This document shows, in pieces, positions 53,298 through 57,919 of a stretch of 64,000 nt of DNA (position 1 is its first letter; the number at the start of each line of letters is the position of its first letter). The notes under the pieces were generated by a model. The model was not told the origin of the DNA, did not search any database, and saw nothing but the letters and a program-made list of their open reading frames with translations. The stretch is from the NCBI GenBank assembly GCA_038891615.1, contig JAWADY010000003.1, forward strand, positions 70,977 through 134,976, written 5' to 3'. A program made the position numbers and the translations under genes. This DNA is from Candidatus Woesearchaeota archaeon. Lineage in GTDB: Archaea > Nanobdellota > Nanobdellia > Woesearchaeales > ARS49.

Positions 53298-54059
53298 TCA
53301 AACCAGAAACCTCTTGAGTGCTTCTTCTTCCACGAAGTGAAGTTTTGATGGCACGATGAGACAATGTGGCGGTTTTCCAAAATCTTGTTTTAAAAGTTCC
53401 TTTGCCTTACCGACTTTGATCTTCTGGTCCTCGCTTCCAAGCCTGCTACAGCCAATGCAGAGAGTGTCTGCAGTAAAGACCTTTTCATTTCTCAAGAGCT
53501 CAATCTTTTGCAAAAGGGCTATTGCATCAGCAATTGTCACAAAACGATTTTCATCTGGCTTGAGGTCGAGAAGGAAAAGTGTGTGCGCTGAAATGGACTG
53601 GTTTTGCTTTAATATCTCGTAAGGCGTTTCTGGCAAATATCCCTTTTCTGGAAATGGAATGCTTGCTGTTTTCCCAAACTTGTAAAGCTGAAGGCCGGTT
53701 TCTGCAACTGCTGTAAACACAGAAGCGCTATGGATAACCTTTACTTCTATTCCTTGTTTTAGTGCTCTGAGCACAAGGTCTATGTGCGTTGTTGCCGCGA
53801 AAGGGTCTCCAACAACAAGGAGTGCATTGTTGGCATCTTTTGCGCCCTTAAAAAGGCTTTCTTCAGGCTTTTGCTCAACAAGTTCGCGGCTTGCAAGTTG
53901 AATTTTCTTTCCAATTAGCTTTTCAAGAGCTGAAAGTTCAAAAAGCAGCGGGCTTGTGTAGGCATCAAGCCAGATTTTGTTGCTGTTCCTTGCAGCGTCA
54001 AGACCTTTTAGGCTTATGTCATCTTTTCCAAGGCCAATGCCTATCAGATAAAGCACCAT
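53298..54059 (-). CDS. dph5: Diphthine synthase
   Basis: LYLIGIGL, VGDPFAATTH, GLQLYKFG and HTLFLLD motifs. Confidence 0.93.
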   Translation of the reverse strand: MVLYLIGIGLGKDDISLKGLDAARNSNKIWLDAYTSPLLFELSALEKLIGKKIQLASRELVEQKPEESLFKGAKDANNALLVVGDPFAATTHIDLVLRALKQGIEVKVIHSASVFTAVAETGLQLYKFGKTASIPFPEKGYLPETPYEILKQNQSISAHTLFLLDLKPDENRFVTIADAIALLQKIELLRNEKVFTADTLCIGCSRLGSEDQKIKVGKAKELLKQDFGKPPHCLIVPSKLHFVEEEALKRFLV

Positions 54060-54111
54060 TTAGAAAAGGGTGGCTGGCTTGCTTAAAAAATTTTGCTGGA
54101 AGGTTGTTAAA

Positions 54112-54144
54112 AATAAAAAAGAAAACCCCTCCTAAGTGGAGGGG
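54112..54144 (-). terminator. Hairpin plus U-tract downstream of ftsZ
   Basis: CCCCTCC-ACTTA-GGAGGGG followed by TTTTCTTTTTTATTTTT on the minus strand. Confidence 0.65.
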
Positions 54145-54236
54145 CACTTTCCTCGCCTTCATTAAAATTTTGGGGGTGGTAATGAAGGCAAGAGAACACA
54201 CCTCTCTTTTGACCAAAGGGGGTGAGTATTACCTCA
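54145..54236 (-). ncRNA. Putative structured 3'-UTR element or sRNA downstream of ftsZ
   Basis: Two further hairpins, one with a ~16-bp stem and loop CCACCCCCAAAATTT. Confidence 0.35.
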
Positions 54237-54238
54237 TT

Positions 54239-55285
54239 TTAGTGAATAAGCTCTATGCCGAGCTCTTCTCCAATTACTTTGCTAGCTGATGCTTTTGCGC
54301 TATATTCCTTGCCAACAATCCATGGGCTCTTAACGCCTGTTATTATTGTCATAACCATAATCTTTCCTTTCATGCTCTCGTCGACCCTTGCTCCCCAGAT
54401 TACATTTGCGTCTTCGTCAAGGCTTTGTGTGACAAGCTCTCCAACCTTGTTAATCTCCTCTAGCGTCATGTCAGGCCCACCAACAACATGTATGAGAGCT
54501 CCTGTCGCGCCTTCATAATTTATTTCAAGCAATGGGTTCTCAAGTGCTCCCTTAACTGCTTCCTCAACCCTGTTTGTTGTGTCTGAGGTTCCAACCCCGA
54601 TTGCTGCAACTCCACCATTTGTCATTATTGCTCTCACATCAGCAAAGTCTAGATTCACAAGCGAAGGTATTGCTATTGTCTCGACAATTCCCTTTATCAT
54701 TGTCGCGATAAGCTCGTTTGCAACAGCAAAGGCTTGTTGAATTGGCAGGTTTCCAGCTATCTGAACAAGTCTATTGTTGTCGATAACTATGACTGTGTCT
54801 GAAACCTTTCTCAGCTGCTCAAGCCCAAACTCTGCTTTGTCGACCCTTGCGCGTTCAATTTTGAATGGCATTGTGACAGTTCCAATAACTATGGCACCCA
54901 TGTCCTTTGCAAGTTGTGCAATGATAGGTGCAGAACCAGTTCCAGTGCCACCTCCTTCTCCTGCGCAGACAAAAACCATGTCAGCATCCTTCAGAGCGGC
55001 CTTCAGGTCGTTCAGGCTTTCTTGGGCAGCGTCAGCGCCTTTTTGCGGAAAGCCTCCTGCGCCTAGTCCTTTTGTTACATCTTTTCCAATTAGTATTTTT
55101 TTATCAGCCTCTGATATTTTTAGGTGCTGAAGGTCTGTGTTACAGGCAATTATTTCGGCTCCTTTTATGCCACGCTTGTACAACCAGGTGACCATATTAT
55201 TGCCAGCCCCACCTGTGCCAACAATTTTTATGCTTGCAGGCTTTACCTCTATTTCGTTTATTGTAACATCTTTTGACCCATCCAT
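54239..55285 (-). CDS. ftsZ: Cell division protein FtsZ
   Basis: GTGGAGNN, GEGGGTGTG and NLDFAD motifs. Confidence 0.96.
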   Translation of the reverse strand: MDGSKDVTINEIEVKPASIKIVGTGGAGNNMVTWLYKRGIKGAEIIACNTDLQHLKISEADKKILIGKDVTKGLGAGGFPQKGADAAQESLNDLKAALKDADMVFVCAGEGGGTGTGSAPIIAQLAKDMGAIVIGTVTMPFKIERARVDKAEFGLEQLRKVSDTVIVIDNNRLVQIAGNLPIQQAFAVANELIATMIKGIVETIAIPSLVNLDFADVRAIMTNGGVAAIGVGTSDTTNRVEEAVKGALENPLLEINYEGATGALIHVVGGPDMTLEEINKVGELVTQSLDEDANVIWGARVDESMKGKIMVMTIITGVKSPWIVGKEYSAKASASKVIGEELGIELIH

Positions 55286-55323
55286 TTTTTCATCCCCCTT
55301 TTACCCCGTTTTTATTAAGCCCC

Positions 55324-55484
55324 CGCCGAAAAGTTTAAATAGTGGAAGCTTTTTCTTAGCCTTAGAAGAAAAAGCCGTTAAAACTGCGCCAACAGTTTTA
55401 ATGCTTAGAAAATAAGTCTAACTATCCAAACGCCAAATACACGCCAAACATTTTAACACGAGTTCGCCAAAACTCGGTGTTAAA
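55324..55484 (-). promoter_or_regulatory. Putative structured ftsZ leader with repeated TTGGCG motifs
   Basis: Two stems with identical TTGGCG loops, two unpaired copies and a third hairpin; BRE/TATA (AAAATGCTTATAAAT) at about 55511-55525. Confidence 0.55.
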
Positions 55485-55570
55485 TTAATTCTTTTATTTA
55501 ATTAGAAACTATTTATAAGCATTTTTATTCTCTATTGTCTATTTTGAAGAATATATTTTCTTTTACCAAA

Positions 55571-56194
55571 TCATCTTTTGAACTTCTCTAAGAACTTTTT
55601 TGCCTTTACGAGGGCTTGCTTCACATATTCTGAATATTCTCCAGTTATTTCAGCCTCGCTTCTTGCGGTGTTCCCCCACTTTTCAAAATAGGTAAGTTTC
55701 TCAATGCTGTATTTTGCTGGTTGGCTTGGGCTTTCATCAGGATAACCAAGGGTCAGTACAGCATATGGAATAGCATTCTCAGGCATCGAAACAGCCTTTT
55801 TTAGCATTTTTTCGTCAAATGCTCCAACCCAACACATTCCAAGTTCAAGTGCGGTTGCCGCAATAAACATGTTTTCTGCAGCAGCAGCACAGTCCTGAAT
55901 GATGTAAAGCTGTTCCCCTCTTTCTGAATAAAACCTTCCAACTTTCTTTGGTTCACCACAAACGATTATGTGGACAGGAGCTGCGGCCATCCACCATTGC
56001 TGCGAACAAGCTTCTGCAATTTCCCTCCGTTTGTCAGGATCAAGCACAATGATGAACTTCCAAGCTTGTAGGTTGCCTGCACAAGGAGCTAGGCTTCCTG
56101 CCTCAAGAATCTTTGACAGCTTATCCCATTCAACAGGTATAGAAAGATACTTTCTGATAGAACGCCTCTTTTTTATTGCCTCAAGCGCGTCCAT
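55571..56194 (-). CDS. Nitroreductase-family protein
   Basis: RRSIRKY, APCAGNLQAW, LGMCWVG and LGYP motifs. Confidence 0.9.
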   Translation of the reverse strand: MDALEAIKKRRSIRKYLSIPVEWDKLSKILEAGSLAPCAGNLQAWKFIIVLDPDKRREIAEACSQQWWMAAAPVHIIVCGEPKKVGRFYSERGEQLYIIQDCAAAAENMFIAATALELGMCWVGAFDEKMLKKAVSMPENAIPYAVLTLGYPDESPSQPAKYSIEKLTYFEKWGNTARSEAEITGEYSEYVKQALVKAKKFLEKFKR

Positions 56195-56755: not shown

Positions 56756-56839
56756 GCAATAAAACTTAATGCTGTTTTCAAAAGGTACAATTGGCTCTTC
56801 TTCTGACTTCTCAAAATTTGGTTATTAGAAACTATGAAA

Positions 56840-56912
56840 CGCCCCCGCGAGGATTTGAACCCCGGTCTCAGGCTCCGCAAGCCCGCATACTATCCAACTA
56901 TACTACGGGGGC
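56840..56912 (-). tRNA. tRNA-Arg(GCG), no intron
   Basis: GCCCCCG/CGGGGGC acceptor; anticodon loop TT GCG GA; T-loop TTCAAAT. Confidence 0.93.
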
Positions 56913-56963
56913 ATGTTAATAATTTCCATTCACTGGCTTTTTTAAATGTTTTCGGCATTTTAT

Positions 56964-57847: not shown

Positions 57848-57919
57848 CGCCCCTGGCCAGAATCGAACTGGCGACCTTGCGGTTAACAGCCGCACGCTCC
57901 ACCGCTAAGCTACAGGGGC
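57848..57919 (-). tRNA. tRNA-Asn(GUU), no intron
   Basis: GCCCCTG/CAGGGGC acceptor; anticodon loop CT GTT AA. Confidence 0.93.

Follow-up and report, generated by a model that had tools for sequence, protein, structure and literature searches.

A conserved array of UUGGCG-loop hairpins upstream of ftsZ in Woesearchaeota and its possible role in sense/antisense RNA control

A 64,000-nucleotide (nt) stretch of the genome of Candidatus Woesearchaeota archaeon (GCA_038891615.1, contig JAWADY010000003.1, positions 70,977-134,976 of the forward strand), referred to here as the window, contains an array of hairpins just upstream of the cell-division gene ftsZ. The differing stems of the array present the same hexaloop, UUGGCG, and comparison with related genomes supports the region as a conserved, structured and strand-specific element tied to ftsZ. 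What was computed directly from the genomes comprises the hairpins and the extent to which they are conserved and covary, the exclusive link to ftsZ, and a pair of promoter-like boxes at fixed spacing. Reading from sequence alone, we hold with moderate confidence that the region controls ftsZ through a sense/antisense RNA module. Given a conserved promoter on the opposite strand, inside the ftsZ leader, a pair of sense and antisense RNAs with kissing loops is a better explanation than a leader that serves as a protein sponge.

The array in the source genome

The source genome is 661 kb in size and 97.9%-complete. A first-pass annotation of the window had listed promoter boxes, hairpins, copies of the loop motif and a short upstream open reading frame (uORF) ahead of ftsZ, and each of these was recovered in its place on the minus strand. 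The features of the leader are:

54239..55285, minus strand: ftsZ coding sequence (paralogue A, 348 aa) from the open reading frame (ORF) list, the gene taken as regulated
55294..55298, minus strand: ftsZ Shine-Dalgarno sequence GGGGG; relatives have the same aaaGGGGGGat ahead of the ATG
55484-55452, minus strand: hairpin H1, TTTAACAC(C)GAGTT[TTGGCG]AACTCGTGTTAAA, 13 bp with one bulged C, loop UUGGCG at 55470-55465
55447-55442 and 55436-55431, minus strand: two TTGGCG copies without a flush hairpin, 11 nt apart
55401-55378, minus strand: promoter-distal (last) hairpin, TTAAAACTG[TTGGCG]CAGTTTTAA, 9-bp stem, loop UUGGCG at 55392-55387
55375-55348, minus strand: third hairpin, GCTTTTTCTT/AAGAAAAAGC, 10 bp, straddling the predicted antisense +1 box
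55330-55324, minus strand: TTCGGCG, the transcription factor B recognition element (BRE) part of an opposite-strand promoter
55451-55422, minus strand: uORF MFGVYLAFG, nine codons

The hexamer itself is not over-represented, with 25 matches on both strands of the window and 25.6 expected. Its grouping is what sets the locus apart. Among 295 occurrences in the genome, the four same-strand copies within 84 nt upstream of ftsZ are the sole group of at least three with gaps of 100 nt or less. The first-pass annotation had proposed scanning the genome for further TTGGCG-loop hairpins, and only two copies with a flush stem of at least 6 bp were found, both of them in the ftsZ array. The array is thus confirmed as real and far from chance. 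The promoter-distal hairpin is also the top match of the source genome to a covariance model of the hairpin (25.9 bits).

Two of the listed elements are present in the source genome and are not conserved. The third hairpin, put forward as part of the array, is local to this genome: the corresponding segment has a mean z of -0.36 in relatives, and RNAalifold, applied to a MAFFT alignment of 49 sequences of the part between the TTCT box described below and the ATG-proximal end, returned 0 pairs, such that a conserved third hairpin was dropped. The uORF MFGVYLAFG exists as described; in 28 of 50 related loci, however, the array lacks any ATG uORF of at least six codons, and the uORFs that do occur there have no Shine-Dalgarno sequence and encode mutually unrelated peptides. 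The sense leader of the source genome folds with z = -1.04. A scan for sigma-70 promoters and intrinsic terminators, which models bacterial rather than archaeal signals, gave nothing at the locus.

Conservation, covariation and linkage to ftsZ

FtsZ loci were gathered from 60 related genomes and 80 public contigs, and the record titles of the related contigs name Woesearchaeota, Nanoarchaeota or Nanoarchaeia. FtsZ paralogue A of the source genome is 75-84% identical to the FtsZ of these relatives. Most of them have two to six TTGGCG copies on the same strand within 500 nt upstream of ftsZ, and the tabulated upstream regions hold about 200 copies of TTGGCG and only two of its reverse complement, CGCCAA. 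In a FastTree phylogeny of 105 FtsZ proteins, from which seven duplicates were removed, the array loci fall in the paralogue-A clade; the paralogue-B clade, which includes a gene of the source genome (G000 C1:110269-111294), is free of copies. Where sub-clades of A are without TTGGCG, the same architecture carries another hexamer (TGGACA, TTGGCT, TTGGTT, TTGGTC, TTGGTA, TTGGTG, TTGGAA or TTGGGT). One UUGG-type hexamer is repeated at least twice in 75 of 86 order-level loci, and repeated loop motifs, read by eye, occur in 13 of 20 ftsZ upstream regions from other orders of the class (TTGGCG, TTGGGC, TTGGCT, TCGGCT, TTGAGCG or TTGGGR). Some loci of the A clade, such as L044, L075, L082 and L100, have no recognisable array.

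The stems vary and covary around the constant loop. The upstream regions of 66 loci hold 185 TTGGCG copies, and the alignment of these was anchored on the hexamer only and is therefore not fitted to any structure. A flush stem of at least 4 bp flanks the loop in 117 of 181 distinct 30-mers, compared to a mean of 14.2 (maximum 24) in 500 partner shuffles. In a loop-anchored set of 150 of the 178 distinct 26-mers, 74.7% of cells are paired, as opposed to 40.4% in shuffles (none of 500 reaches the observed value) and 36-47% with slid partners. The covariation score for the same 150 sequences is 0.757 versus 0.19, and all eight of the eight pairs vary on both sides. H1, for example, is conserved with compensatory changes, such as GAGTT/AACTC in the source genome and GTGT/ACAC in locus L010. 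About a third of the copies are unpaired or lie in larger loops, including the two middle copies of the source genome, which in relatives are often found within hairpins or larger loops. The alignment of upstream regions from relatives that the first-pass annotation had called for therefore shows both that the loop motif is kept and that the stems covary strongly.

These results bear on whether the copies act as DNA. A series of operators bound by a regulator of the ftsZ promoter, or a repeat able to form a cruciform, would account for direct repeats near promoters, for the fixed spacing between a TTCT box and a TATA-like box downstream of the array, and perhaps for the gene of a winged-helix protein that lies upstream in 16 loci. 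However, the stems covary around kept loops, which is the reverse of the pattern expected for a protein that reads duplex DNA; the distance between successive copies varies among loci, the fixed spacing is explained by the distance from TATA to start on the other strand, and the winged-helix gene was not found in the source genome. We consider a DNA-level element very improbable. The phased DNA-level control suggested in the first-pass annotation likewise fits poorly with covarying stems and with the placement of all but two of the approximately 200 upstream copies on one strand.

The covariance model of the hairpin was used to search 41 genomes and gave 32 matches at E <=0.1, of which 27 are just upstream of an ftsZ. 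Twenty-five of these are within about 300 nt of the gene and two are arrays at the end of a contig, leading into the start of an ftsZ; three of the 27 come from genomes flagged unpublished (G009, G024). The remaining five matches are isolated hairpins within ORFs, and chance alone would be expected to give about as many at this threshold. A simpler pattern search for two copies in 37 genomes was noisy and returned mostly matches in coding sequence. The array stays with ftsZ whatever the upstream neighbour, be it a nitroreductase, winged-helix or diphthine-synthase-like gene on either strand.

Hairpins could also serve passively, by stabilising the 5' end of the mRNA or by terminating read-through from the upstream gene, with loops that nothing reads. 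H1 does lie within a few nt of the predicted 5' end. Still, the loop sequence is kept across orders of the class while the stems drift, the upstream neighbour varies and the intrinsic-terminator scan was negative at the locus, and we give very little credence to a purely structural role.

The first-pass annotation knew of no such element for ftsZ in these archaea, and none was found in Rfam or in searches of the open-access literature. Rfam covariance models gave no meaningful match on either strand of the window at E up to 10, and in 10 related loci at E up to 1 they gave only tRNAs and chance matches. Searches of open-access papers and preprints for the motif, for structured RNAs of DPANN archaea, for archaeal ftsZ leaders and for ftsZ antisense RNAs did not bring up an account of the element.

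Predicted convergent promoters flank the array

Archaeal promoters were scored with a BRE and TATA matrix learnt from 256 Shine-Dalgarno-led ORFs of the source genome (104 sites). The resulting consensus is cRAAAAgnTTTATAaA, and the TATA start peaks 45-65 nt before the start codon. The matrix identifies a candidate promoter on each strand, as follows:

55508..55527, minus strand: sense promoter P1, BRE AAAAA and TATA CTTATAAA (55519-55512), 10.5 bits
about 55489-55493, minus strand: predicted sense start, giving a predicted ftsZ leader of about 205 nt
55326..55345, plus strand: antisense promoter Pas, BRE CGAAAAG and TATA TTTAAATA (55334-55341), 14.3 bits
55364..55367, plus strand: AGAA box (TTCT on the minus strand), the predicted antisense +1, 30 nt past the start of the Pas TATA
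55364..55505, plus strand: predicted cis-antisense RNA of about 130-140 nt with CGCCAA loops, its extent inferred
55489-55499, plus strand: T-runs TTCTTTTATTT that would end the predicted antisense RNA, with a further T5 at 55522-55526

P1 corresponds to the BRE/TATA that the first-pass annotation had named, and it is a canonical promoter. No other sense-strand match in the spacer ahead of ftsZ exceeds 5 bits, and H1 begins about 5 nt past the predicted start of P1. Among relatives, 47 of 49 loci have a P1 of at least 8 bits (median 13.2), placed 40-54 nt ahead of the first copy in 39 of the 47. A sense promoter nearer to ftsZ than P1 reaches 8 bits in only two of 50 loci.

On the 3' side of the last hairpin are two boxes that are conserved in sequence and fixed in spacing. 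The TTCT box follows the last loop at a median of 23 nt, and a TATA-like box, ATATAAAcATTTcG, follows the TTCT box at 25-28 nt in 38 of 44 loci. The TATA-like box was considered as a second sense promoter and rejected by the promoter matrix, which gives it a sense score of -1.5 in the source genome and a median of 1.1 in relatives (at least 8 in three of 49). Read on the plus strand, it belongs to Pas, about 40-60 nt upstream of the ftsZ ATG. The element list of the first-pass annotation missed this opposite-strand promoter inside the leader. The TTCGGCG that it took for a variant copy of the loop motif is instead, by the matrix scan, the BRE of Pas, which on the minus strand consists of that TTCGGCG and the conserved TATA-like box.

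Pas is widely conserved. Of 50 related loci (median score 11.7), 43 have a Pas of at least 8 bits, and in 36 of these 43 the TATA start is 30-31 nt from the AGAA box. A combined test for the promoter and the AGAA box is positive in 66 of 86 order-level A-clade loci, compared to 12 of 86 in a mirror-image control. It holds in lineages with TGGACA, TTGGCT or TTGGTT loops, is positive in 10 of 20 loci of other orders and in none of the six paralogue-B loci. Both ftsZ promoters have AGAA near the predicted start, which may be a lineage-typical initiator.

The folding of the two strands was also compared. The predicted antisense RNA (55364-55505) folds at -27.2 kcal/mol with z = -3.83, a value matched by none of 200 shuffles. 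Its first hairpin is the promoter-distal hairpin read on the plus strand, with a CGCCAA loop. Over 50 loci the mean z is -2.73 for the antisense strand and -1.0 for the sense strand, and the antisense value is the better in 46. Past the last antisense hairpin, 43 of 49 relatives have a T-run of at least four (26 with at least five); on the other strand such runs occur in 27 of 50 (seven of 50 with at least five). In relatives the predicted starts of the convergent transcripts are a median of 139 nt apart, which gives the predicted overlap.

The mismatches in the stems point the same way. An A.C mismatch in a sense stem is a G.U pair on the antisense strand, so that an excess of A.C over G.U was taken as a sign of a folded antisense RNA. 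With two Watson-Crick pairs on each side, A.C or C.A mismatches outnumber G.U pairs by 31 to 10 (in 27 and 10 loci), and with one Watson-Crick flank by 55 to 19.

In the sense RNA the sequences flanking the Pas box can pair, AAGCTTCC with GGGGGCTT (55317-55351, minus strand). Over 50 loci the mean best helix bracketing the box is 6.8 bp, compared to 5.57 in permutations, and RNAalifold gives 0 consensus pairs, so that such a stem is weakly supported as a predicted structure. Its 5' arm overlaps the 3' arm of the third hairpin, and the two structures are therefore mutually exclusive in the source genome.

The antisense promoter, the +1 box and the T-runs, together with the better fold statistics of the antisense strand and the A.C bias, would also suit a free-standing small RNA gene on the plus strand. 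Its CGCCAA loops would then act on a target other than the ftsZ leader, or be bound by a protein, and its location would reflect only shared regulation or transcriptional interference. However, P1 is canonical in 47 of 49 loci without a nearer alternative, and the sense complement is therefore very probably made. The source genome has no other UUGGCG-loop hairpin that could be a target in trans, the non-ftsZ matches in relatives are five singletons inside ORFs, and the conserved motif of the sense strand fits YUNR, the consensus typical of target loops. We regard an independent small RNA as quite improbable.

Of the 66 loci that have the antisense promoter, 40 have a nearest upstream gene that runs in the direction of ftsZ (in 30 of the 66 it is a co-directional gene of the nitroreductase family). 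The antisense transcript has no protein-coding gene to express at such loci, the source genome included, which favours the sense/antisense module described next.

A proposed sense/antisense module

We infer from these features that both transcripts exist and that they pair; how ftsZ would be affected, and in which direction, is proposed below on the same footing. The convergent archaeal promoters P1 (minus strand) and Pas (plus strand) would flank a block of two to four hairpins. From P1, the ftsZ mRNA would begin about 205 nt ahead of the ATG, such that the hairpins lie in the 5' part of the leader with loops of 5'-UUGGCG-3'. Pas would fire in the opposite direction from the AGAA box and produce an RNA of about 130 nt with loops of 5'-CGCCAA-3', which would end at the T-runs just beyond H1. 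Such an antisense RNA would be fully complementary to the hairpin block of the leader. The first contact of the two RNAs would presumably be a kissing interaction between loops, and their pairing, along with collisions of the convergent polymerases, may set the amount of translatable ftsZ mRNA. By analogy, the effect on ftsZ would be negative. It might arise by transcriptional interference, by attenuation, or because a 5' hairpin that protects the mRNA is lost. A partner encoded in cis stays complementary through any change of the loop, so that no factor in trans need co-evolve between lineages.

The alternative that is closest to the first-pass annotation is a leader in which only the sense RNA matters, and an RNA-binding protein reads the UUGGCG hexaloops multivalently and sets the fate of the ftsZ mRNA, in the manner of iron-responsive elements, Smaug, ANTAR or CsrB. 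The loops are identical within a genome and the hexamer switches jointly between lineages (TTGGCG, TTGGTT, TGGACA, TTGGGC and others), as expected of a co-evolving reader protein; the copies are strictly one-stranded, and P1 places the hairpins inside the leader. Nevertheless, the loop-reading families that were searched for were not found in the 97.9%-complete genome. The source genome gave no match to CsrA (PF02599) at E <=0.1, in a search in which the controls did match, and none to PUF; its best ANTAR match (PF03861) is 15.5 bits, below the 27.3-bit cut-off. SAM_1 and SAM_2 (PF00536, PF07647) had no match in the source genome, which carries little weight given that the control genomes gave none either. 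UUGGCG does not contain the GGA of Csr/Rsm loops. A protein reader would leave unexplained both the opposite-strand promoter with its 30-31-nt spacing to AGAA and the bias of A.C over G.U in the stems, and no conserved neighbour gene could encode it; the winged-helix gene beside 16 loci was not found in the source genome. We judge a protein-binding leader unlikely. The CsrB-like multivalent RNA of the first-pass annotation has no positive evidence in its favour, with CsrA, ANTAR, PUF and SAM-domain proteins not found in the source genome (the SAM searches gave no match in the control genomes either). Its broader suggestion of post-transcriptional control was right in kind, with a pair of sense and antisense RNAs more likely than a protein sponge.

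Several points weigh against the sense/antisense module. Both promoters and both start sites are predictions from sequence, made with a matrix from one genome and applied to other genera, and 20 of 86 loci fail the combined test for promoter and AGAA box. Some relatives have weak TATA-like boxes (4-7 bits) nearer to the ATG that could be a second sense promoter. A comparison of raw fold energies did not discriminate between the strands, with nearly equal minimum free energies of -7.13 and -7.04 per hairpin and the antisense strand the more stable in only 23 of 50 regions, and part of the asymmetry in z is due to composition because the sense strand is rich in G and U, so that its shuffles fold well. 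The excess of A.C mismatches is partly inherited among related loci, could by analogy also reflect interior loops of the upper stem as in plasmid systems, and coexists with G.U pairs on the sense strand (10 cases). The predicted overlap stops about 80 nt before the ATG (median 114 nt in relatives), leaving the Shine-Dalgarno sequence uncovered, and RNase III was not found in the source genome. Finally, pairing of antisense RNAs in cis does not account for loops that are identical in each genome and switch jointly between lineages, a pattern that suggests some further constraint, for instance from a protein or from cross-kissing. With the same loop on the hairpins of a genome, any loop might kiss any other, or a still undescribed chaperone might read them.

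Other partners for the loops were tried and rejected. A T-box-like pairing of UGGNN with tRNA 3' ends, or mimicry of a tRNA D-arm or anticodon loop, would need different tRNAs for the lineage variants, and the best pairing register of the motif is a hexaloop rather than a 7-nt loop. The C-rich loop in the leader of paralogue-B ftsZ does not serve as a general pairing partner, given that paralogue B is almost confined to the genomes of this family.

Comparison with known systems

YUNR is the U-turn consensus typical of target loops. Franch et al. (1999) reportedly deal with the U-turn loops, of YUNR type, by which antisense RNAs and their targets are recognised, and the title of Asano et al. 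(1998) names the 5'-rUUGGCG-3' target loop. The UUGG of the array fits the consensus, as do the variants UUGGUG, UUGGCU, UUGGUU, UUGGUC, UUGGUA, UUGGAA, UUGGGC, UUGGGU, CUGGAC and UUGAGC; the loop UCGGCU of the L120 lineage does not.

The closest likeness in mechanism is to plasmid countertranscripts, that is, Inc/repZ of ColIb-P9, CopA/CopT of R1 and RNAI/repA of pMU720. In these systems, too, a short structured antisense RNA arises from a convergent promoter inside the leader, an arrangement that is predicted at ftsZ, where sequence matches of 14.3 bits (Pas) and 10.5 bits (P1) converge across the leader. As with UUGGCG in I-complex and FII plasmids, a conserved YUNR loop sits on variable stems. 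Recognition in the plasmids begins by contact between loops, and the same is proposed for the ftsZ array. A passage in PMC3753616 gives UUGGCG as the hexaloop of the target hairpin in the R1, ColIb-P9 and pMU720 antisense systems, so that the target loop 5'-UUGGCG-3' is shared with the ftsZ array, and also describes an interior loop at the top of the recognition hairpin as required in the plasmid system. The ftsZ array has mismatches and bulges of this kind in the upper stem, including the bulged C of H1 and frequent A.C mismatches at pairs 4-5. A passage in PMC7491321 states that the Inc and repZ RNAs form a kissing complex.

The differences are also considerable. The ftsZ array is chromosomal and archaeal, has BRE/TATA promoters and precedes a cell-division gene rather than a replication initiator. 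It has two to four recognition hairpins with identical loops, whereas the plasmids have one or two, and it has no leader peptide, given that the uORFs are not conserved. Unlike ColIb-P9, the sense leader offers no CGCCAA partner for a pseudoknot, a hexamer that occurs only twice in the tabulated upstream regions. The Shine-Dalgarno sequence lies outside the overlap, and RNase III, as noted, was not found in the source genome. Common descent of the array and the plasmid systems is unlikely, and the resemblance is one of mechanism.

The nearest functional precedent for the gene itself is StfZ of Escherichia coli. We know of no conservation of StfZ beyond enterobacteria. Its abstract (PMC9628754) describes a cis-antisense RNA from just upstream of ftsZ that is proposed to set the level of FtsZ. 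StfZ is bacterial and lies at the ftsA-ftsZ junction, and the abstract mentions neither a multi-hairpin array nor a UUGGCG loop (PMC9628754).

The repetition of one loop motif on unrelated stems is also seen in CsrB/RsmZ (GGA loops), in Smaug recognition elements (CNGG loops) and in the dual hexaloops of ANTAR targets. The ftsZ array differs from these RNAs in its conserved opposite-strand promoter, and their cognate proteins were not found in the source genome.

Neighbouring genes and other observations

The gene upstream of ftsZ in the window, and the tRNA genes beyond it, are:

55571..56194, minus strand (the ftsZ strand): nitroreductase-family gene, Pfam PF00881, E = 6.4e-30
56839-56913, minus strand: tRNA-Arg(GCG)
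57848-57919, minus strand: tRNA-Asn(GTT)

The spacer between the nitroreductase-family gene and ftsZ is 285 nt. The order of nitroreductase-family gene, ftsZ and diphthine-synthase-like methylase (PF00590) is widely kept (53298-56194 in the window; loci L001-L110), with the nitroreductase gene upstream of ftsZ in 38 loci and the methylase downstream in 31. The tRNA genes lie upstream of the nitroreductase gene, and the 'GFEPR' ORFs of the mechanical ORF list are translations of them. FtsZ-A of the source genome begins MDGSKDVTINEIEVK (55240-55285, minus strand) and lacks the MDFIVENALK-like N-terminal extension of most relatives.

One group of relatives (16 loci, among them L083:158-775 and L075:92-766) has the winged-helix gene immediately before the array, on the strand of ftsZ. 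The gene encodes a protein of about 180 aa with an N-terminal winged helix, weakly matching FUR, IclR and TrmB, and an uncharacterised C-terminal half. A tblastn search of the source genome gave no homologue at E <=0.01.

Paralogue-B ftsZ (G000 C1:110269-111294, minus strand, outside the window; also L026, L081, L088 and L095) is 77% identical and has a conserved leader of a different kind. This leader consists of a long hairpin with arms aggctctc/gagagcct and a large C-rich loop with a conserved stretch resembling ccaccccccaaac. It has no TTGGCG copies, and the antisense-promoter signature is absent from all six loci.

Implications

DPANN archaea are mostly uncultured, and to our knowledge the setting of FtsZ levels in archaea is largely unknown. 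The array would be a conserved, sequence-defined regulatory element at a central division gene, present in most of one order and also in further orders of its class. Annotators of such genomes gain a candidate non-coding RNA gene of about 130 nt and a long ftsZ leader, and the predictions can be tested through the two start sites, through the small RNA itself and through loop mutations paired with compensatory changes in the partner.

If the sense/antisense module is real, then the UUGGCG kissing loop of enterobacterial plasmids is also used in archaeal chromosomes. We tentatively suggest, as a possibility that goes further than the module itself, that Nanoarchaeia, the class to which the Woesearchaeales-type DPANN archaea belong, may run their main FtsZ by a chromosomal countertranscript system similar to plasmid copy counting, in which an antisense RNA with several CGCCAA loops titrates the leader by way of UUGGCG kissing loops. 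The output of the division protein would then be a thresholded function of promoter balance or gene dosage, and the same six-base RNA-RNA loop would have been convergently reinvented, or retained as a very old shared solution, in another domain of life.

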